From positions 1 to 6,997 of IMG/VR virus record IMGVR_UViG_2547132274_000005: 6,997 bases of DNA. One strand, 5' to 3'. This document shows positions 1-6,997 of the stretch, one piece after another. The notes beneath the pieces were generated by a model. It made no database searches and had not been told where the DNA came from. It saw only the letters and a program-made list of their open reading frames with translations. The position numbers and the translations under genes were made by a program. The DNA comes from a virus (lineage: Duplodnaviria; Heunggongvirae; Uroviricota; Caudoviricetes). The number at the start of each line of letters is the position of its first letter. The stretch's first letter is position 1.

Positions 1-297
1 CCCGCCAGCAGTGCGATGCGCCAGCATTGCCGCGAATACGGAGGCCGGGGAGTCGTAATACGCCAGCAGTGATTCGCCGTGTGGTGTCAGGCAGTGCAAC
101 GCCAGCCCGTGTGGTGTGAAGTCCACGCGGTAGCAGTCGTCTACTGTGAAATAAAGGGTGTCCGCATTCTCCGGTTTTGTGGTGCGTGCTCTGTTGTCAC
201 GACCACGGATGTAGAGATCAAATAATCCCTGAAGAATGGGAGCCAGACGGGTGTCCTGTGTGCGCACCCATCTTGTGAAGTCATGAGCGTCAATCAT
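1..297 (-). CDS. Hypothetical protein, N-terminal 99 aa only (MIDAHDFTRWVRTQDTRLAPILQGLFDLYIRGRDNRARTTKPENADTLYF...); CDS continues beyond window start
   Basis: Minus-strand frame is open from the ATG at 297 to position 1 (99 codons, no stop). It is absent from the ORF track because no stop lies in the window. Weak SD-like AAGAGA sits about 9 nt upstream. Same frame and orientation as the upstream 76-aa gene. No family recognised. Confidence 0.5.
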   Translation of the reverse strand, partial: MIDAHDFTRWVRTQDTRLAPILQGLFDLYIRGRDNRARTTKPENADTLYFTVDDCYRVDFTPHGLALHCLTPHGESLLAYYDSPASVFAAMLAHRTAGG

Positions 298-369
298 GCT
301 GCAATTCTCTTTACTACAGATGTGCGAAGGCCTCCCGCCGCAAGGTGCAGGAAAGGCCCGGAACAGGAA

Positions 370-600
370 TTAATGGAGTTTGTTTTGCTGCTGGATGAGC
401 TGCTGAAGCTCGCGCAGATCATCCGCCAGATAGCTGAAAACAGAGGCGGAATAGCTGTTCGATAGTGCGTGACTGCGTTCATGCAGCATATTGATGTGCA
501 TGATTTGCGCGACACGGAATGCGCGGAAAAGTCTGCGGTTGATTTCAGTCTGGATGTGACGACGCTCCGCGATAGCGCGGTGCTGTTTGCGGTTTGCCAT
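370..600 (-). CDS. Small basic protein, 76 aa (MANRKQHRAIAERRHIQTEINRRL...), function unknown; possible nucleic-acid-binding regulator
   Basis: ATG at 600 is preceded by GAGG at about 7 nt spacing. The N-terminus is arginine/lysine-rich and the C-terminus looks heptad-like. Track ORF 370..600. Confidence 0.55.
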   Translation of the reverse strand: MANRKQHRAIAERRHIQTEINRRLFRAFRVAQIMHINMLHERSHALSNSYSASVFSYLADDLRELQQLIQQQNKLH

Positions 601-632
601 GGTGTGGCCTCTGTAGTTGCAAGTTTTGAAAA

Positions 633-667
633 CTCACCATCCAGAGGTTGCAATTCTGGGTGGTGAG
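633..667 (+). other. Stem-loop: 13-bp stem (one G.U pair on the + strand transcript) with 9-nt loop GGTTGCAAT
   Basis: 633-645 ctcaccatccaga pairs with 655-667 tctgggtggtgag. The single non-Watson-Crick position is a G.U pair on the + strand and an A/C mismatch on the minus strand, a weak hint that the + strand RNA is the one that folds. The loop carries the repeated motif. Confidence 0.45.
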
Positions 668-830
668 ACGTACGGGGTTGCAACCACCGGCAACTACAGA
701 AACCGGCCCGACCGAAGTCGGCCCCGTACGCCCCACCATAATTCGTGTGCGAAAAAGACGTGGCGATACGGTACGCACAAAAAAACCGCTGGCGCGGTTG
801 TGCGCTGTAGTTGTCAGCGGGGGTTGCAAT
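646..830. repeat. Three copies of motif GGTTGCAA(C/T)(C) with palindromic core TTGCAA: 646-654, 676-685 (perfect 10-bp palindrome GGTTGCAACC), 822-830; a fourth TTGCAA at 617-622
   Basis: Direct reading of the sequence. TTGCAA is not clustered like this anywhere else in the window. Copies 1 and 3 sit in 9-nt loops of local hairpins (the stem for copy 3 is only 4 bp, 818-821 with 831-834). Confidence 0.6.
779..798 (-). terminator. Putative rho-independent terminator for the leftward operon
   Basis: On the minus strand: ACCGC-GCCA-GCGGU hairpin (5-bp GC-rich stem) followed directly by UUUUUUU (+ strand A-run 779-785). It lies about 150 nt downstream of the stop of the last operon gene at 939. 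Confidence 0.45.
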
Positions 831-938
831 CCCGGCACTCGTTTTATGAGGTGCAGCGGAAATGTAACCTGACTGATTGCGGCATGGCAAGCGGTTTTTT
901 TGTGTATACATGGGTTAACCTTCTGGCAGTGACACGGA

Positions 939-1085
939 TTACACGGCGTACAGGCCGCGAGCGTGACACCACACTTCAAACATTCGTTTCACAATTTCGC
1001 GGCAGTAGTAGCCATCAACATCCCTTGTCAGGTCATAGCGATTGCCGTAACGCTGGCGCATCCATCGTTCAAAGGCTTTGTGCAT
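939..1085 (-). CDS. Small protein, 48 aa (MHKAFERWMRQRYGNRYDLTRDVDGYYCREIVKRMFEVWCHARGLYAV), function unknown
   Basis: ATG at 1085 is preceded by GAGGA at about 6 nt spacing. The track ORF 939..1139 begins at an upstream non-ATG codon; I prefer the ATG with the strong SD. Confidence 0.5.
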   Translation of the reverse strand: MHKAFERWMRQRYGNRYDLTRDVDGYYCREIVKRMFEVWCHARGLYAV

Positions 1086-1122
1086 GTTCTGTCCTCTGGC
1101 TTTTTGTTTATTCGTTATATTT

Positions 1123-1146
1123 CCGGCCAGCGGTTTCACTGGCCGG
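1123..1146. other. Intergenic GC-rich stem-loop (8-bp stem CCGGCCAG/CTGGCCGG, 8-nt loop) between the SPFH gene stop and the 48-aa gene
   Basis: Perfect inverted repeat read directly. No U-run follows on the minus-strand transcript, so it is probably not a terminator; it may be an RNA processing or stability element. Confidence 0.35.
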
Positions 1147-1152
1147 GTTGAA

Positions 1153-1977
1153 TCACTTCACCGGAACAAACGGAACAGCGGTATTACTGGTCATGTATTG
1201 CGGCAGCGTGCCGTTCCATTTGTTGATTGCTTCCAGCTCCATAACACCGGGGTTCTGGCGCAGAGCTTCACCGCGTAAACGAATAGCATCGGCTTCAGCC
1301 TGGGCTTTTGTGCGAATGGCATCAGCCTGTCCGGCTGCTTCTGCGCGTAGCATGTTGGCTTCTGCTTCGCGTTGCTTGACTTCCTGCTCGCGTTGCAGGG
1401 TTTTCTGGTTTGCCGTGACTTTGGCGTTAATGCTGTCGATAACGGTTGGCGGATATTCCGGTTTACCCACATAAGAGAGGCTCATGACCTGAATACCGAT
1501 GGGGGTCATCTCTTCCTGAATATCTTTAAGTGCTGAATCCAGCAGTTCAGACTTACCACCGTCGATAAACTTATCGGTGGTCATTTTGCTGGCCAGTCGG
1601 TTGAGTGCATCGGCGATCTTCTGGCGCAGGTCAGTGTCGGTAATGTCATCCACGCCTTTGCGGTAGGTCTGAAACACTGTGGTAACTTTGGATGGATCAA
1701 CCTTGTAAGCCACGCCGATGTGATAGCCGATGGTTGTGCCGTCACTCATCTGGAAGCTGAACGGCTCATCGTAGGTCTTCATTTGCTTGAAGGTGGGGAA
1801 GATGTAAACCTCTGTATTCCAGCCAGTCCAGTAGCGGCCAACGCCAACCACTTCGCCGACGCCTTTGTCGTCGCCCAGTTTGTTGACTTTGATGCCTACA
1901 TTGCCCGGCTCCACGCGGTCACAGCCAACCAGAAGTGTGGTCATCAGGAGAGGGATGAGTGGTAATAGTTTTTTCAT
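1153..1977 (-). CDS. SPFH/band-7 (stomatin-prohibitin-flotillin-HflK/C) domain lipoprotein, 274 aa; predicted inner-membrane lipoprotein
   Basis: N-terminal signal MKKLLPLIPLLMTTLLVGC with lipobox LVGC; the +2 residue after Cys is Asp, the E. coli inner-membrane retention signal. The body is a globular beta-rich domain followed by an Ala/Glu/Gln/Arg-rich coiled coil (QREQEVKQREAEANMLRAEAAGQADAIRTKAQAEADAIRLRGEAL), typical of SPFH proteins. The start ATG overlaps the stop of the upstream 70-aa gene (ATGA). Confidence 0.85.
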   Translation of the reverse strand: MKKLLPLIPLLMTTLLVGCDRVEPGNVGIKVNKLGDDKGVGEVVGVGRYWTGWNTEVYIFPTFKQMKTYDEPFSFQMSDGTTIGYHIGVAYKVDPSKVTTVFQTYRKGVDDITDTDLRQKIADALNRLASKMTTDKFIDGGKSELLDSALKDIQEEMTPIGIQVMSLSYVGKPEYPPTVIDSINAKVTANQKTLQREQEVKQREAEANMLRAEAAGQADAIRTKAQAEADAIRLRGEALRQNPGVMELEAINKWNGTLPQYMTSNTAVPFVPVK

Positions 1978-2186
1978 TGTTTGGTTTCCATAATTGCTTT
2001 GATGTAGTTACTGAAAAAGCGGACAACGCCCGCCGGGTACAGCAAGGCGACAAAAATGCCCAGCAATACCAGGAAGGAGCTGTCTGATGAAATCATTCTG
2101 GGAAGTAGCCCCACATACAGAATGAGAGAAACGAGGACGCATACCAGCGCCCACATGTATGCGCGAAACCAGGTCTTTTTGTTCAT
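1974..2186 (-). CDS. Small integral membrane protein, 70 aa, two predicted TM helices; partner of the SPFH lipoprotein (NfeD-like role possible)
   Basis: Two hydrophobic segments (WALVCVLVSLILYVGLL and FLVLLGIFVALLYPAGVV). Its stop overlaps the start of the SPFH gene. The SD upstream of the ATG at 2186 is weak. Confidence 0.65.
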   Translation of the reverse strand: MNKKTWFRAYMWALVCVLVSLILYVGLLPRMISSDSSFLVLLGIFVALLYPAGVVRFFSNYIKAIMETKQ

Positions 2187-2197
2187 ATCGCGGTTCT

Positions 2198-2497
2198 TTA
2201 CTGGTTAAGGAAAAAATCAAAAACCTTGTCGATGCGTTGCAGTAGCTCTCGTTGCATTGCTTCCGGCGTTTCTGGTTCACCAGGCGAACCCAGTGGTGCG
2301 CAGAAATCAGCGATTTCATGATGGAGCGTCAGGCGAATGGCTGGAGCCATGGTTCTGGCGTGCTCCAGCTCATCCAGCAGTGCCAGCACAGCGGACGGCG
2401 AGAGCATTGCGTGAAACGCTAGTAATTTTTGATGCGTTGCCATTCGTTGCGAGTCTGTCGCCAGTTCGCGTAGTTCCTGGTGGTTGATGGTGCTCAT
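2198..2497 (-). CDS. Hypothetical acidic protein, 99 aa
   Basis: Track ORF. The ATG at 2497 overlaps the stop of the upstream gene (ATGA coupling). No recognisable motif. Confidence 0.6.
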   Translation of the reverse strand: MSTINHQELRELATDSQRMATHQKLLAFHAMLSPSAVLALLDELEHARTMAPAIRLTLHHEIADFCAPLGSPGEPETPEAMQRELLQRIDKVFDFFLNQ

Positions 2498-2739
2498 GCT
2501 CTGGCTTCCTTCAGTAGTTGGTTAAACATGTTGGTAAGTGGATTGCCGCACCCGAACGGCATCGGGTTTATCTGGTAAGAAAAGCGACCGCCTGTTTTGC
2601 GCTCTTTTCTTATGACTGAACCGCTGCGCCAGAGTCGGCGTAACTCCGCATTAATGGCTGTGGTTGGGGTATTTAGCGCGGCAGCGATTTCTCCACCGCT
2701 ACAACCCGGATTGGCGGCGATGTAGTCCAGAATGGTCAT
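2494..2739 (-). CDS. Small winged-helix-like DNA-binding protein, 81 aa (putative transcriptional regulator)
   Basis: Pattern SGGEIAAALNTPTTAINAELRRLWRSGSVIRKERKTGGRFSYQI resembles helix-turn-helix plus beta-hairpin wing. The ATG at 2739 overlaps the stop of the upstream gene. Confidence 0.6.
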   Translation of the reverse strand: MTILDYIAANPGCSGGEIAAALNTPTTAINAELRRLWRSGSVIRKERKTGGRFSYQINPMPFGCGNPLTNMFNQLLKEARA

Positions 2740-2966
2740 CTTCGTGGCTCCTGTACCCTGGTCGTTAGTTGCCTGCTTTTTTTGCGCAGAACCTGTACAT
2801 ACATCACGTTAGTAGCCGTGTAATGCTTCCCGTTCTTAAGCCAGATGTGATGAATACCGGGCTCGCTGCGGGAGGGGGCTGTTCTGTCGTGATCGATCAG
2901 GCTGTCTTCCACGTCGTATTCAATGCCGCCCGATGTGAAATGTACGGTTAAGAATGATTTGATCAT
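2736..2966 (-). CDS. Hypothetical protein, 77 aa (MIKSFLTVHFTSGGIEYDVEDSLIDHDR...)
   Basis: ATG at 2966 is preceded by a strong SD AAGGAG at about 7 nt. The track ORF extends to 3068 in a frame that overlaps the 137-aa gene, so I trimmed it to the SD-supported ATG. Confidence 0.6.
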   Translation of the reverse strand: MIKSFLTVHFTSGGIEYDVEDSLIDHDRTAPSRSEPGIHHIWLKNGKHYTATNVMYVQVLRKKSRQLTTRVQEPRR

Positions 2967-2994
2967 CGCTGTGCTCCTTTGGTTTTTCATGGGG

Positions 2995-3408
2995 TTATGC
3001 GTTAAATGGGGAAGAGGTTGCCATGTCGATGAACGCAATCCGGTCGCGTCTGATGATGTGTACATCACTCAGCGGTTCGCTCTCATTTGCCGGAACCGCA
3101 GCAATCATGTAGCTCCCCTGCAGGTCTGCCAGGATGATGTATTCCTGTTGTGGGTTGTTGATGATAAAGACCCGTTTCCCAATGCTGGGGGAAGAAGTGT
3201 TGGTGCCGGCTAATTGAGCTTTGAGAGTGCTGATTTCGTTGTTCAGGCTTTCAATAAGTCCAGCAGCACTTGCGGTGACTTCTGCTATAGCCATTGAACG
3301 AACATAAAAGGGAATAAGCCCTTCTCTCAATGCCTGCCTGGCTAATGCATCTTCCATTTCTGATATTTTTTTCAGTTTGGTGATGGTGACTGTATCTTTA
3401 GCGTTCAT
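2995..3408 (-). CDS. Hypothetical protein, 137 aa; N-terminal helical/coiled-coil region and C-terminal beta-rich region
   Basis: ATG at 3408 is preceded by GAGGA at about 7 nt. Track ORF. Confidence 0.7.
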   Translation of the reverse strand: MNAKDTVTITKLKKISEMEDALARQALREGLIPFYVRSMAIAEVTASAAGLIESLNNEISTLKAQLAGTNTSSPSIGKRVFIINNPQQEYIILADLQGSYMIAAVPANESEPLSDVHIIRRDRIAFIDMATSSPFNA

Positions 3409-3499
3409 TTTGTATCCTCGTTATTTGTGTGTGCGAATACCTCCGCGAGTGCGGATTGTTTTCACGTTTTCTTATTTAATCTGGTGTTTAGTTGTGCTG

Positions 3500-3613
3500 T
3501 TATTCGTCGGGGAAATAACGTTCAATCTTTTTCACTGAATGAATAATTCGCACAATCCCAATGGCGCAGACCACCGAAATAATCAGAACAAGCCAGGACA
3601 TAAATATACTCAT
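3500..3613 (-). CDS. Small hydrophobic peptide, 37 aa (MSIFMSWLVLIISVVCAIGIVRIIHSVKKIERYFPDE), single predicted TM helix
   Basis: Not in the ORF track (under 60 aa). The ATG at 3613 overlaps the stop of the upstream 80-aa gene (ATGA) and is preceded by GGAGA at about 7 nt. The hydrophobic core is followed by a charged tail. Confidence 0.45.
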   Translation of the reverse strand: MSIFMSWLVLIISVVCAIGIVRIIHSVKKIERYFPDE

Positions 3614-3852
3614 GCGGCGTTCTCCAGTTCGTATGGTTCAATAATGCACCCTTTACACAAAAGCCCCACCACAGTTTCGAGTTCTTTATATGCGTAAAAA
3701 TCCCTTCGAATTTTGGCGTATTCCCGAAGGTGGCGAACCGATTCTGTCAGCGAGTTATGAGCTAGGGGAACAGCAGAATGACCGTACTCCGCTACATCAA
3801 AATGATATTGCTCAAGTGCTTTGTTAATGAGAGTTTTATATTCTTTGTCCAT
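3610..3852 (-). CDS. Hypothetical protein, 80 aa
   Basis: ATG at 3852 is preceded by AAAGGA at about 7 nt. It lies 11 nt downstream of the previous gene's stop. Confidence 0.65.
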   Translation of the reverse strand: MDKEYKTLINKALEQYHFDVAEYGHSAVPLAHNSLTESVRHLREYAKIRRDFYAYKELETVVGLLCKGCIIEPYELENAA

Positions 3853-3863
3853 CGCAATATCCT

Positions 3864-4142
3864 TTAATCTGCTTTCTGAATTTCAGCTTCTGAATCCATG
3901 CAGATAATTTCGATGTATGGTTCATCGCTATTAATCTGACGTGCCTTTTCAGCTTTGCTAATGATTTCTCGTACGGTCTGGTACGGAAGCTCCACAGTCA
4001 GGCGCGTACCGTTCAGATAAACGTAAGTAGCTGCGTTTTTTTCGGATGGAACAACTCCGTCAATGGCTGATGCGCGTAATAACAGTTCACCGCGAAAATC
4101 AATAAAACGGATAAATACACCTTGTGCATGCTCTTTGGTCAT
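3864..4142 (-). CDS. Hypothetical protein, 92 aa (MTKEHAQGVFIRFIDFRGELLLRASAIDG...)
   Basis: Internal ATG at 4142 is preceded by AGGTG at about 5 nt. The longer track ORF (to 4202) would overlap the upstream gene. Confidence 0.55.
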   Translation of the reverse strand: MTKEHAQGVFIRFIDFRGELLLRASAIDGVVPSEKNAATYVYLNGTRLTVELPYQTVREIISKAEKARQINSDEPYIEIICMDSEAEIQKAD

Positions 4143-4152
4143 AAAGCACCTG

Positions 4153-4503
4153 TTATAAATCAGTCTGTTTAATAAAACTTTGTCCGCGAAGCAGACGATC
4201 AACCGTGCGTAGTGCTTCGTATAATGTGAAATCCTGCCCGAACTGATTGTCGCCGCTGCTTAGTGCAAAAATGCGATTTCCGGTAAACGGATTGCGTGGG
4301 CATTTATGGACCACGATTCCAGCTTTCTCAATCAGCCAGGCATGCTCGCCGATTTGTTTTACTGGGTGGCCATCCGGCGTTGCGTGTGTTTCGCTCAGGC
4401 TGTAACGAGAGCTGCTGCGTGATGCACTGGTAGCGAAACGGTTAGCATGGCGTTCTGCCCCGTTGCGGAAGCGTTGCTGTGAAGAATTACGTCGTTGCTT
4501 CAT
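4153..4503 (-). CDS. Hypothetical basic protein, 116 aa; first gene of a promoter-proximal sub-operon (alternative start at 4551 would give 132 aa)
   Basis: ATG at 4503 is preceded by AGGA at about 9 nt; the ATG at 4551 has no SD. The N-terminus is Arg/Ser-rich. Confidence 0.5.
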   Translation of the reverse strand: MKQRRNSSQQRFRNGAERHANRFATSASRSSSRYSLSETHATPDGHPVKQIGEHAWLIEKAGIVVHKCPRNPFTGNRIFALSSGDNQFGQDFTLYEALRTVDRLLRGQSFIKQTDL

Positions 4504-4645
4504 ACAAAAATATCCTGCTGCTGTTGCGAATTTGTGCCGGGTTTTAGCCATGTCCGGCGCATGGTTTTGTGGTATTTTTCCGGCGCCCGCAGTCTTGAAG
4601 GGGCTGTAAAGGGCGCGTGTTTAACCAACCACAAATGAGGTTTAT

Positions 4646-4882
4646 ATGACTCAAAAATCAGTACCTGTTTATACGCCCAGTGAACTTGAGTGTCTGAGTG
4701 TTAATAATCATGCCTGCCTACGTTTCCATTATGATTTAGGTAACGATACTGAGTTACCTAAAGCTGGAGAGTTGTTTACGGCCTTAACTCTTGAGCAAGC
4801 AAAAGACCTTGTTGTTTTTCTTCAGCAATACATCTCAAAGGCTGAGATTACAGAATCCTTAAGCTCTAAATCACGTCATTGA
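4646..4882 (+). CDS. Hypothetical protein, 78 aa, encoded opposite to the surrounding operon (moron-like)
   Basis: ATG at 4646 is preceded by GAGG at 5 nt. The ORF is visibly AT-richer than its neighbours (by eye, not computed). Its 3' end overlaps the 3' end of the convergent 163-aa gene by 7 nt. Confidence 0.5.
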   Translation: MTQKSVPVYTPSELECLSVNNHACLRFHYDLGNDTELPKAGELFTALTLEQAKDLVVFLQQYISKAEITESLSSKSRH

Positions 4883-5367
4883 TTTATGAATCCGAGGAAC
4901 TTCCCTTTTTTGAGGTACCGCCGGTTCATTTTTACTGAGTCAACTTGAAGGTCTTGACTTTCTTTTATATCGGGGGTACAAGCCCCCGATATATTTCGTG
5001 GCTCAATTAGCATTGATTTGTTATTCAGAATCTGCCCGTAAAGTTCCAGTGCTTCTTCAGCAGGAAAACGGAGCATGACGCCGTATATTGGTTCTAAAAT
5101 CATTCCAATCGTCTCTTTGACGTCATCTCGACAAAAATGACCGTATTCATCGTCAGGATGCAGGGTGACACTTTTCAAATCTTCGCCATTCTGAAGCTTT
5201 GATTTAAATGCCATCAGGTCAGCGAACGTTCTGTGTAATTCGTGGTAGTCAACGCTGATTTCAATCTGCGGTTTGCCCGGAAAAACCAGCAAAAGCTTCT
5301 GGTGTGGTTTTTCGTTTTTCAGGGCTTCCAGTCGTTCCAGTAGTGCTTTATCTTCGTGGTTTGTCAT
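4876..5367 (-). CDS. Hypothetical acidic protein, 163 aa (181 aa if the TTG at 5421 is used)
   Basis: Track ORF 4876..5421 begins at TTG. The first in-frame ATG is at 5367, with only a weak GGGA SD. Second gene of the leftward operon after the Cox-like gene. Confidence 0.55.
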   Translation of the reverse strand: MTNHEDKALLERLEALKNEKPHQKLLLVFPGKPQIEISVDYHELHRTFADLMAFKSKLQNGEDLKSVTLHPDDEYGHFCRDDVKETIGMILEPIYGVMLRFPAEEALELYGQILNNKSMLIEPRNISGACTPDIKESQDLQVDSVKMNRRYLKKGKFLGFINQ

Positions 5368-5448
5368 TTCAAAGTCCCAGCCACAGCAACCATGCGTCTC
5401 GTTGTTCTTTCGGGCGTGCAAAGAATGCGTCGACGCTCTTGATGTTGC

Positions 5449-5976
5449 TCATGATAAATCGCTCTCGTGATCTCTGCGTCTTTCCAGTTTTGAGCTTCTA
5501 CCCATATAAACCCGTTTTCCGTTAACGGTCTGGCAGTCTTCTTTGTCGGCTGGAGAGAACTTTCTTTTCTGGCGGTCATACGTCCAGTAGCTTTTCCAGT
5601 TGTGCCATTCTGGTGGCTCAAGCTCTGGTAACTCGTCAGCAAGTGCGTCCCATTCTTTGGTGTTAAACCACCATACGCCGTCTGAATCTTCATCTTCCGG
5701 GTTTGTGCGCGTTTTGTGTCCCGGCATTTGACCGCGATTAAGGGCCATGCGCAGTGCGGCTTTTGTTAGCCCAATATATGCCGCGCCTCTTTCCAGAGAG
5801 CAAAGCCCGGCGATCGGACCATCCAGCCGTAAATTTGCTCCTTTTTTGTAAGAGCGCTTTTTCTTGTTTTCTTCGTGTTCGTCGTTGTTGGCGGCATCAA
5901 TGGATCCGCTGAGTGTGTCACTTTCCTGAAGTGGTTGGTGGTCAGATAACTCTTTATCGGCAATGAAGTCCCGCAT
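5449..5976 (-). CDS. Cox/excisionase-like DNA-binding protein, 175 aa, with N- and C-terminal extensions relative to a typical ~90-aa Cox
   Basis: ATG at 5976 is preceded by AAGAGGA at about 6 nt. The central segment LERGAAYIGLTKAALRMALNRGQMPGH...GVWWFNTKEW resembles the HTH and following aromatic motif of P2 Cox as I remember it. The gene is divergent from the C-like repressor, as in the P2 switch. The N-terminal ~55 aa are acidic and low-complexity. Confidence 0.5.
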   Translation of the reverse strand: MRDFIADKELSDHQPLQESDTLSGSIDAANNDEHEENKKKRSYKKGANLRLDGPIAGLCSLERGAAYIGLTKAALRMALNRGQMPGHKTRTNPEDEDSDGVWWFNTKEWDALADELPELEPPEWHNWKSYWTYDRQKRKFSPADKEDCQTVNGKRVYMGRSSKLERRRDHESDLS

Positions 5977-6079
5977 TTGTTATCCTCTTGTGTTGGTGCG
6001 CTTGTCGCGCCTTGTGATGGTTTGTTTTGGTTTGTTTACTTCACCTTGTGGTGAAGAATGAAGAGAGGATACTCATCGT
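5977..6079. promoter_or_regulatory. Divergent lysis/lysogeny switch region between the Cox-like and C-like genes, with direct repeats and one inverted repeat
   Basis: CTTGTG(N)TGG direct repeats at 5987, 6011 and 6045. Tandem GGTTTGTTT(T/A) at 6019-6038. Inverted repeat CTTCACC-ttgt-GGTGAAG at 6039-6056. Candidate rightward sigma70 promoter TTGTGA (6012-6017), 17-nt spacer, TTTACT (6035-6040). Confidence 0.45.
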
Positions 6080-6421
6080 ATGGTGAACATGTCAAGAGAT
6101 TATGCCAAAAAACTAAAGGCGATCAGAAATGCGGAAAAACTTACCCAATCTCAGTTTTCGCAAGTAACGGGGGTTTCTGTAGGGACTATAGGAAATTATG
6201 AGTCTGGATATAAACCTGCGCGAATTGAGGTTGTAGAAAAAGTAATCCAAGTCGAGCGATTCGAAAAATACACTATGTGGATACTTCACGACAAAACATT
6301 TCCCGCTGCCGGGCAGGTTGCTCCGGCTCTCTCTCTTGATGGCTCCATTCAGTCGGAGGACGATCAGGCTTCAATCGGCATTACCCAAAAATCACCCCGA
6401 TCAGGCCGCAATGTTGGCTGA
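6080..6421 (+). CDS. P2 C-type immunity repressor-like HTH (XRE family) protein, 113 aa
   Basis: HTH signature LTQSQFSQVTGVSVGTIGNYESG. Remembered similarity to P2 C (YESG, F.KYT.W, GQ.APAL). SD GAGAGGA lies upstream of the ATG at 6080. Positioned immediately upstream of int in the same orientation, as in P2. Confidence 0.75.
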   Translation: MVNMSRDYAKKLKAIRNAEKLTQSQFSQVTGVSVGTIGNYESGYKPARIEVVEKVIQVERFEKYTMWILHDKTFPAAGQVAPALSLDGSIQSEDDQASIGITQKSPRSGRNVG

Positions 6422-6490
6422 CTTTACACATTGAGCGAATTACATCTCGCAAGGAGTGTTTAGTTAATTTATCCGTTGGAGGGGCTAATC

Positions 6491-6997
6491 ATGTCGATTA
6501 AGCAACTCAAAGACGGACGTTATCGGGTTGATGTCAGACCTCAGGGGGCGGAAGGAAAGCGGATTCGGAAAACCTTTACCCTGAAATCAAAGGCTCAGGA
6601 GTTTGAGAAGTATGTGTTACAGAACTTCCATGACAAGCCATGGCAGGCTAAGCCAGCTGATCAGCGGCGATTATCAGAGCTGCTTGATGCGTGGTGGATG
6701 CTTGACGGGCGTAATCAGGCTTACGGGGATAGCTACAGGGTCAGGCTAGGGAAGGTTATTCGTGAAATGGGAGATCCTCGCGCCAGTCAGATGACGCGAA
6801 AATTTATGCTTGAATATCGGTCAGAGAAATTACAGGCCGGATTAATGCCGTCCAGTATTAATCGTGATTTATGCGTTCTGTCTACCATGTTCACGGTGCT
6901 GATTGAAGCTGAGGTCTTTCACAACGCGAACCCTGTACGCGGTATACGTAAACTGAAAGTTCAGAACACAGAGATGGCCTTTCTTTCTGATGATGAG
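6491..6997 (+). CDS. int: Tyrosine recombinase/integrase, P2 Int family, N-terminal 169 aa; CDS continues beyond window end
   Basis: ATG at 6491 is preceded by GGAGG at 8 nt. The frame is open to the window end. The N-terminus MSIKQLKDGRYRVDVRPQG...GKRIRKTF...PSSINRDL...MFTVLIEAE closely parallels P2 integrase as remembered. It is absent from the ORF track because no stop lies in the window. Confidence 0.9.
   Translation, partial: MSIKQLKDGRYRVDVRPQGAEGKRIRKTFTLKSKAQEFEKYVLQNFHDKPWQAKPADQRRLSELLDAWWMLDGRNQAYGDSYRVRLGKVIREMGDPRASQMTRKFMLEYRSEKLQAGLMPSSINRDLCVLSTMFTVLIEAEVFHNANPVRGIRKLKVQNTEMAFLSDDE

Follow-up and report, generated by a model that had tools for sequence, protein, structure and literature searches.

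An apparent prophage without replication genes: the probable early region of a P88-type P2-family phage, with an RNA immunity module, on a single contig

Can a temperate phage with an immunity switch of the P2 type do without a replication gene? The question is raised by a stretch of 6,997 nucleotides (nt) of viral DNA (IMG/VR record IMGVR_UViG_2547132274_000005, positions 1 to 6,997), called the window in what follows, in which such a switch is followed by eleven genes of 37 to 274 amino acids (aa) up to a terminator near position 780, and in which no protein matches a replication, primase or helicase family of Pfam, PHROGs, NCBIfam or PADLOC. A first-pass annotation of the sequence had described this arrangement, and the description holds, with the gene count exact, except that the interval 3864-5976 to which it was attached takes in only the first five of the genes described. 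Either replication functions had been swapped for cargo in a satellite or degenerate prophage, it was argued, or the replication genes lie beyond the window. At a probability of roughly 0.88, we read the window as the left part, with the immunity and early-lytic genes, of an ordinary temperate prophage that belongs to the P2 family and, within it, to the P88 type (genus Xuanwuvirus), a phage type that is already known and very common.

The whole window is identical to a contig of a draft Escherichia coli genome, AEJZ01000202.1 (assembly GCA_000208525.2), which is itself 6,997 bp long. Both window ends are therefore assembly breaks, the right one inside an integrase gene and the left one inside the gene at 1-297. 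The map was built from a six-frame list of open reading frames (ORFs), from protein family scans (Pfam, PHROGs, NCBIfam, PADLOC) and an RNA scan (Rfam), and from the gene calls on the identical public contig; synteny within the lineage was tabulated by tblastn over 23 loci. By megablast, parts of the window are matched in 1,774 of 5,426 complete E. coli genomes, at up to seven places per related genome, and the top matches are annotated as P2-family prophages. The nearest longer contigs (related loci carry L numbers) align in part, L008 at 99.97% over 3331-6997 and L004 at 99.4% over 2495-6997; the APEC37 contig gives a 94.8% match over 1-904. The switch and the left end consist of the following features.

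6491-6997, plus strand: integrase, N-terminal 169 aa, cut by the contig end (Pfam Int_N 1.9e-28; phmmer against P2 Int 3e-50)
6080-6421, plus strand: immunity repressor of the P2 C type, 113 aa, HTH_3 (phmmer against P2 C 1.7e-18; Pfam HTH_3 5.5e-10)
6041-6095, minus strand: Pe-like early promoter with putative O1/O2 half-sites (promoter scan, 10/12 matches; direct repeats)
5449-5976, minus strand: Cox-like regulator/excisionase, 175 aa, first gene of the early operon (phrog_23196 4e-106; P88 cox 1.3e-11)
1-297, minus strand: gene of 129 aa (phrog_3237), of which the contig end leaves the first 99 codons (99% identical to the 129-aa proteins of PhiR44_2 and APEC37)

The repressor gene and the Cox-like gene are divergent and the cut integrase gene adjoins the former, as in P2, where C and cox form a divergent switch with int beside C. 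The Pe-like promoter, TTGACA-18-TATCCT (TTGACA at 6095-6090, TATCCT at 6071-6066), reads into cox and scores highest among the promoter matches of the window. Its -10 hexamer lies between two direct repeats of 15 nt (6087-6073 and 6055-6041), which are 80% identical and have a spacing of 32 nt; P2 likewise has direct-repeat half-sites around the -10 of Pe. The C repressors of the P2 family bind non-palindromic direct repeats across this hexamer, with a spacing of two helical turns in P2 and of three in Wphi, and the geometry of the putative half-sites resembles the three-turn operator spacing of Wphi (PMC2995052).

The Cox-like protein reaches 27.2 bits with Pfam Phage_Cox, just below the gathering score of 27.5, and gives a BLASTP E-value of 0.004 over 47 residues with P2 Cox; its homologue in UTI89, 89% identical, is annotated in RefSeq as a Cox family DNA-binding protein. 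A PDB sequence search with the protein gave nothing significant. At 175 aa it is about twice as long as P2 Cox (91 aa), being extended at the N-terminus (by about 55 residues, acidic in character) and also at the C-terminus, and the Cox model covers only residues 59-129. In relatives, the full-length integrase gene (330 aa) adjoins dmsA. A gene for the small RNA STnc130 (Rfam, 136 bits) was observed at 8285-8419 of L004 and L006, between dmsA and the prophage integrase gene, and the attachment site of this integrase type may lie at or near it.

The closest named phage is P88 (KP063541; Xuanwuvirus, Peduoviridae). Window and phage have the same gene order: int, C, cox, a DUF4761 gene, a 92-aa gene, a DUF4754 gene, a 37-aa gene, a gene of 66/67 aa (76 aa in the window), a MarR gene and an Ead gene, followed by a 70-aa gene, an SPFH gene, the IsrK and C4 RNAs, the gene of a derepression protein, a 121/129-aa gene and, in P88, gpA. 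The segments that both have in common are 90-95% identical at the nucleotide level. This gene order is also found in at least 20 prophage loci, and the P88-like relatives include the UTI89 prophage at dmsA. The window differs from P88 in immunity type, its C and Cox being 33% and 31% identical to the P88 proteins. It has in addition a 163-aa/78-aa gene pair, a 137-aa gene and a 217-bp segment with a 48-aa ORF; it carries the 129-aa and P88 the 121-aa variant of the gene before gpA, and loop b' of its C4 RNA is of the TTGCAA type, that of P88 of the TTTCCA type. P88 itself was obtained by mitomycin C treatment of its lysogen and forms plaques (PMC5285337).

What may be expected to the left of the window follows a strict pattern in the relatives. 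The product of the cut gene is 97% identical to protein cluster P0034 (1,279 member sequences), whose gene precedes Phage_GPA in 5/5 places shown, representing 17 contigs, and the same holds for PhiR44_2 and APEC37 (L021, L022). In all these places there is a 4-nt overlap between the stop of the 129-aa gene and the start of a gene for a Phage_GPA replication endonuclease of 941-946 aa. The count was extended to every fetched related locus that reaches far enough past the 121/129-aa gene (L001-L006, L009-L016, L020-L022, L024-L028; n=22), and in 22/22 a Phage_GPA gene of 931-946 aa comes directly after it; next are ParM and a ParR-like gene, and after these the portal, terminase and capsid genes of the P2 type. 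All the relatives reaching there thus possess an initiator in its usual position, directly to the left. Given this synteny, the start of gpA probably lies on another contig, some 90 nt left of the first base of the window.

A rival account has the element lose its initiator, take up cargo instead and come to depend, as a P4-like satellite or a degenerate prophage would, on a second P2-like prophage that supplies replication and virion genes. This account explains why the window holds no replication gene, and it can draw on two hallmarks of P4 that the window does hold, the epsilon-like gene and the IsrK/C4 RNA pair considered below; since related genomes have up to seven matching places, it is common for one genome to hold several P2-like prophages, and among them there could be a helper. 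The integrase, C and Cox, however, are of the P2 type and not of the P4 type; among P4 proteins only epsilon was matched, and alpha primase, sid, delta and psu are not in the window, which is simply a contig. Together with the near identity of the cut gene to one that overlaps gpA wherever it was seen, and with the structural genes that follow gpA in the relatives, this makes the satellite account, which the first-pass annotation had named first, highly improbable: gpA is missing from the window due to the contig edge, and P88 is a plaque-forming phage. The other proposal, replication genes beyond the window, is borne out by the relatives, with the correction that the cut gene at 1-297, which had been thought a candidate, is not the initiator itself.

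Indeed, neither the cut gene nor the 163-aa protein matched any replication family when searched as that annotation had proposed. The AlphaFold model of the 129-aa protein is moderate (predicted local distance difference test score, pLDDT, 65) and gave no Foldseek match at E<=0.001 against the PDB or viral models. As a replication factor it was considered and set aside: there is no evidence for such a role, no Pfam domain and no significant structural neighbour. Many family members bear the NCBI name "inositol monophosphatase", almost certainly a legacy mis-annotation, since the protein has 129 aa and no Pfam domain and its gene is always found before gpA. Right after gpA, a ParM-type actin-like segregation ATPase and a Plasmid_stab_B (ParR-like) gene were observed in L001-L016, L020-L022 and L024-L026; such genes are unexpected for an integrating P2-like phage and hint at a plasmid-like stage or a stabilisation function.

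It could also be imagined that this particular copy is of the P88 type but has been interrupted or rearranged at its left end, by an insertion sequence (IS) or a deletion in or before gpA, and that the assembly stopped there for this reason. Contig ends often mark IS elements, an IS66 transposase gene lies within the L004 prophage a few kb further on, and two further draft assemblies, L027 and L028, also break within gpA. The 129-aa reading frame, for its part, is open up to the last base of the contig and 99% identical to that of intact relatives, and breaks inside gpA and int are expected where several P2-like prophages have these genes in common, as up to seven matching places per genome would allow. 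Since L027 and L028 break inside gpA and up to seven matching places occur per genome, repeats common to co-resident P2-like prophages are the most likely cause of the breaks, and damage at the left end seems unlikely.

Several points nevertheless weigh against reading the window as part of an ordinary P88-type prophage. The gpA of this genome would lie past the contig end and its presence is deduced from relatives; a contig break can also come from an IS element or a deletion, so that the copy could be damaged. The assignment of Cox, with its borderline Pfam score, is weaker than those of C and Int. A homologue of the P2 B gene, to which the P2 record assigns a necessary role in lagging-strand synthesis, was found neither in the window nor in the corresponding part of the relatives. 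Finally, for a phage of the P2 type the way in which the RNA module regulates would have to be taken over by analogy from P1, P4 and Gifsy-1.

The length of the early operon had contributed to the impression of an aberrant element, and here the comparison with P2 and 186 is instructive. In P2, cox was supposed to be followed by A within about 1.5 kb; in fact the two genes start 2.0 kb from each other, with six small genes between, and in 186 the corresponding figure is 3.6 kb. In P88 it is 4.3 kb and in relatives up to 6.2 kb; for the genome of the window it would be about 6.1 kb. The P2 early operon, too, ends in an initiator of the gpA type, and the gpA of the relatives is likewise placed and 32% identical. 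Among the proteins of P2, 186 and P4, the small proteins of the window gave matches only to Int, C, Cox (weak) and epsilon. No homologue of P2 orf78, B and orf80-83 was found in the window, nor of 186 cII, fil, dhr and orf79-84, and all that P2/186 and the P88 lineage have in common is Int, C (P2 only) and gpA (32-35% identity). The P2 early region (C, Pe/Pc, cox, orf78, B, orf80-83, A) has neither an IsrK/C4 module nor an epsilon-like gene across the whole early operon.

Phage 186 resembles the window more in layout than in proteins. In its early operon (apl, cII, fil, dhr, orf79-84, A), too, A is preceded by a long series of small, non-essential ORFs, and there are internal terminators, as in the window; according to its record translation of orf84 is needed for A, which recalls where the 129-aa gene lies and how it overlaps gpA. 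It has no protein homology to the window lineage except Int and A, and its early region gave no IsrK or C4 match in Rfam. In 186 the switch consists of CI, Apl and CII, with the LexA-controlled antirepressor Tum after A, whereas in the P88 lineage an RNA-controlled epsilon-like gene stands before gpA. On this point the first-pass annotation stands: the small proteins are not homologues of P2/186 early proteins and are conserved only within the P88 lineage. With none of the small early proteins in common, P2 and 186 are poor templates for a P88-type early region.

The most distinctive part of this region is found between the small genes and the left end. The eleventh small gene ends at 1153, and the stretch 601-1152 that follows is mostly non-coding, apart from the 48-aa ORF. 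In it and just to its left the following elements were recognized.

861-890, minus strand: promoter-like site TTGCCA-18-TACATT (9/12 match; ends 7 nt before the IsrK-like start; invariant in 13 loci)
779-854, minus strand: IsrK-like RNA with intrinsic terminator (799-784) and decoy/target sites b1 and a1 (Rfam RF01394, 53.2 bits, gathering score 50)
656-743, minus strand: C4/CI-type antisense RNA (Rfam RF01695, 82.1 bits, gathering score 45, E=1.6e-15; full model 1-87)
608-655, minus strand: downstream target sites b2 (655-641) and a2 (623-608) (sequence and duplex prediction)
370-600, minus strand: P4-epsilon-like (Derepression family) protein of 76 aa, putative antirepressor (Pfam PF25738, 27.9 bits, cut-off 27)

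The hairpin at 799-784, taken earlier for the end of the gene run, is the 3' end of the IsrK-like RNA, and this terminator is invariant in 13 loci. The loops of the C4 RNA, a' (UCUGUAGUUGC) and b' (GGUUGCAACCCC), are complementary to b1/a1 inside IsrK and also to b2/a2 downstream, with predicted duplex energies of -40 and -41 kcal/mol that were reached by 0/300 shuffles. Site a2 covers the Shine-Dalgarno sequence, AGAGG, of the epsilon-like gene (370-600). The product of this gene is 27% identical to P4 epsilon (BLASTP E=6e-07), and its P88 homologue, 95% identical, is annotated as derepression protein; a PDB sequence search gave nothing significant. No LexA box was seen near the IsrK-like promoter on inspection by eye.

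An alignment of 13 loci is 92% identical overall, with variation confined to six patches that correspond to the loops and target sites, and these patches covary. Between C4 and the target sites that follow it, 89% of the cells pair, 10/19 pairs are compensatory and covariation is 0.515 against 0.12 in shuffles (0/500 reach it). For the upstream sites with C4, 95% of the cells pair, 10/17 pairs are compensatory and covariation is 0.599 against 0.14 in shuffles (again 0/500); slid controls gave <=0.12 in both comparisons. In 23 loci there are 12 distinct (a', b') combinations, which come from the independent assortment of some 8-10 a' types with 5 b' types. As judged from this covariation in sequence, a textbook case with three partners, the module is under selection for RNA-RNA pairing.

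A 205-aa ORF at 294-911 (minus strand), called by some gene callers (L006, L016, L025-L028) and weakly similar to Phage_ASH, was rejected as coding and is probably spurious, because it overlaps both RNAs and, in another frame, the epsilon-like gene, because the variation there tracks RNA pairing and not codons, and because the P4 record has an analogous "cI" ORF over its C4/CI RNA match.

The elements of this module are familiar from other systems. IsrK corresponds to the P4 seqA leader and C4 to the P4 CI immunity RNA, and P1, P7, N15 and Gifsy-1 have RNAs of the same class (PMC3632133, PMC10111431, PMC4825925). The left operon of P4 (PLE, seqA leader, CI RNA, epsilon, orf151, alpha) shows the same order of promoter, IsrK leader with terminator, C4, epsilon, small ORF and replication gene; both Rfam models match at equivalent places before epsilon, and a promoter-like site TTGCCT-18-TATAGT (8728-8699), with the isrK match from 8692, has the same geometry as the site in the window. 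There are also differences. The replication gene is the alpha primase-helicase in P4 and the gpA nickase in the P88 relatives, the 129-aa protein is unrelated to P4 orf151, and the epsilon-like gene begins 56 nt after C4 in the window as against about 245 nt in P4. Moreover, unlike in P4, the module of the window sits in a phage of the helper type that also has a protein repressor.

In the immI region of P1/P7 (c4, icd, ant) and in isrK-orf45-anrP of Gifsy-1, a two-loop antisense RNA likewise has targets upstream and over the ribosome-binding site of a gene leading to an antirepressor. Transcription of IsrK ends at a terminator, yet part of it continues into the antirepressor operon (PMC4825925, PMC7313666). 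The immI region is a determinant of hetero-immunity with specificities that differ between related phages, and the variation of loops and targets among the relatives of the window has the same pattern. The antirepressors belong to different families, Ant/AnrP in P1/P7/Gifsy-1 and, putatively, P4 epsilon in the window; and in the P88 relatives, unlike in P1/P7 immI and Gifsy-1, the module stands in line with the replication gene of the phage. A description of such a module for P2-family phages was not found in the searchable literature. The class and mechanism of the module are well known, and only its place in line with gpA, with combinatorial specificities, has some novelty.

By analogy with these systems, a scheme for its action can be proposed. 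In the lysogen, C would repress Pe, and the module's own promoter would supply the C4 RNA. By pairing with b2 and a2, C4 would block translation of the epsilon-like antirepressor and, by polarity, limit read-through into the 129-aa gene and gpA. Upon infection or derepression, transcripts from Pe would read past the IsrK terminator and outrun C4, or titrate it via b1 and a1, with the result that antirepressor and gpA are made. In P88-type phages, which belong to the helper class, the IsrK-C4-epsilon module could then represent a second, RNA-based determinant of immunity and anti-immunity in line with the replication gene, in which C4 gates both an antirepressor of P2-type C repressors and transcription into gpA. 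We put this role as a second determinant forward tentatively, as an idea with less than even chances.

It remains to consider the small genes that fill the early operon. On the minus strand after cox there are exactly eleven before the hairpin at 799-784, of 163, 116, 92, 80, 37, 137, 76, 81, 99, 70 and 274 aa, and beyond these one gene of 78 aa on the opposite strand and one ORF of 48 aa.

4876-5367, minus strand: 163-aa protein, AT-rich variable cassette directly after cox (GC content 0.41)
4646-4882, plus strand: 78-aa gene, convergent with the 163-aa gene, 7-nt overlap (GAGG Shine-Dalgarno sequence 7 nt upstream)
4153-4503, minus strand: DUF4761 protein, 116 aa, lineage backbone (Pfam DUF4761 1.6e-69; in nearly all P88-type loci)
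3864-4142, minus strand: 92-aa protein, lineage backbone (phrog_3800 2e-57; synteny)
3610-3852, minus strand: DUF4754 protein, 80 aa, divergent allele (Pfam DUF4754 1.1e-15)
3500-3613, minus strand: hydrophobic peptide of 37 aa, lineage backbone (called in relatives, 81-100% identity)
2995-3408, minus strand: 137-aa protein (phrog_9338 3.4e-28; variable alleles, 35-100% identity)
2736-2966, minus strand: 76-aa protein, phrog_3459 (6.6e-17; gene call in L023)
2494-2739, minus strand: MarR-type winged-helix protein, 81 aa (Pfam MarR_2 2.1e-06 and HTH_24; phrog_1687)
2198-2497, minus strand: Ead/Ea22-like protein, 99 aa (phrog_4144 3.4e-59; Pfam Ead_Ea22 24.3 bits, below cut-off)
1974-2186, minus strand: 70-aa membrane protein, 4-nt overlap with the SPFH gene (phrog_1130, membrane protein, moron category, 2e-21)
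1153-1977, minus strand: SPFH/Band-7 lipoprotein, 274 aa (Pfam Band_7 5.5e-31; phrog_200 lipoprotein 1.5e-111)
939-1085, minus strand: 48-aa ORF (phrog_3871 3.7e-31)

Two kinds of genes seem to be intermingled here. According to the tblastn comparison of the 23 loci, the DUF4761, 92-aa, DUF4754, 37-aa, 76-aa, MarR and Ead genes form a lineage backbone together with the epsilon-like gene, the 121/129-aa gene and gpA. Three slots are variable: the one after cox, the 137-aa gene, and the cassette of 70-aa membrane protein, SPFH protein and 48-aa ORF. These slots are AT-rich, with a GC content of 0.40-0.44 compared with about 0.52 elsewhere. The early operon is long because the lineage carries a conserved string of small genes, with AT-rich cassettes inserted. 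Of the earlier view that it is loaded with unknown cargo, the part concerning the 163-aa/78-aa pair and the 70-aa/SPFH/48-aa unit stands, since these are cassettes, but most of the small genes are backbone of the lineage.

The slot after cox (4646-5367) holds unrelated proteins in the relatives (203+155, 91+155, 117+155, 140+63 or 68 aa). The 163-aa protein gave no match in Pfam, PHROGs, NCBIfam, PADLOC or the PDB and was not found among 50,697 phage records; its homologues form only 33 clusters, all from Enterobacterales (Escherichia, Citrobacter, Salmonella, Yersinia), and its AlphaFold model is unreliable (mean pLDDT 53.9). The 78-aa gene is also called in L004, L006, L008 and L023 and is possibly a moron expressed in the lysogen; its product matched no family in the four protein collections. 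The slot could be a hotspot for morons or defence genes, although nothing in it matches PADLOC. Ten proteins, from Cox through the Ead-like protein, were run against PADLOC and gave nothing, and NCBIfam, searched with all unassigned proteins, returned weak matches only, far under the cut-off.

Within the backbone, the DUF4754 allele is only 44% identical to that of most P88-type loci while the flanking genes are 80-100% identical, which suggests, at the level of sequence, an allele replacement. For the DUF4761 protein a PDB sequence search gave nothing significant, and the 99-aa Ead-like protein was found on a single public contig only, AEJZ01000202.1. The cassette at 905-2186, with the 70-aa membrane protein, SPFH protein and 48-aa ORF, is 91-92% identical at the nucleotide level to Stx2-converting phages and phiP27, which are lambdoid, and is missing from L004, L006 and PhiR44_2. 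Its 48-aa ORF lies within the 217-bp segment 905-1121, which most relatives, even those with SPFH, are without (a gap in megablast); in phiP27 it is contiguous with SPFH, and it travels with the SPFH cassette. The SPFH gene is often annotated as serine protease in Stx2 phages and phiP27.

The apparent prophage without replication genes is, on the reading preferred here, a contig-edge artefact in a common and already sequenced phage type, and long early operons are normal for the P88-type lineage. What the RNA module means for these phages depends on whether it acts as proposed. If it does, the re-assortment of its loops would fit a conflict between co-resident P2-like prophages, which have C-type repressors in common, and P4-like satellites, which have the same RNA and antirepressor families. 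A resident C4 RNA could silence a matching satellite or superinfecting phage, and the epsilon of a mismatched invader could derepress the resident. That IsrK-C4 in prophages serves as a defence against satellites is an idea already raised for lambdoid prophages (PMC3632133). The module could be relevant to mutual sensing and induction among P2-like prophages and P4-like satellites that reside in the same host.

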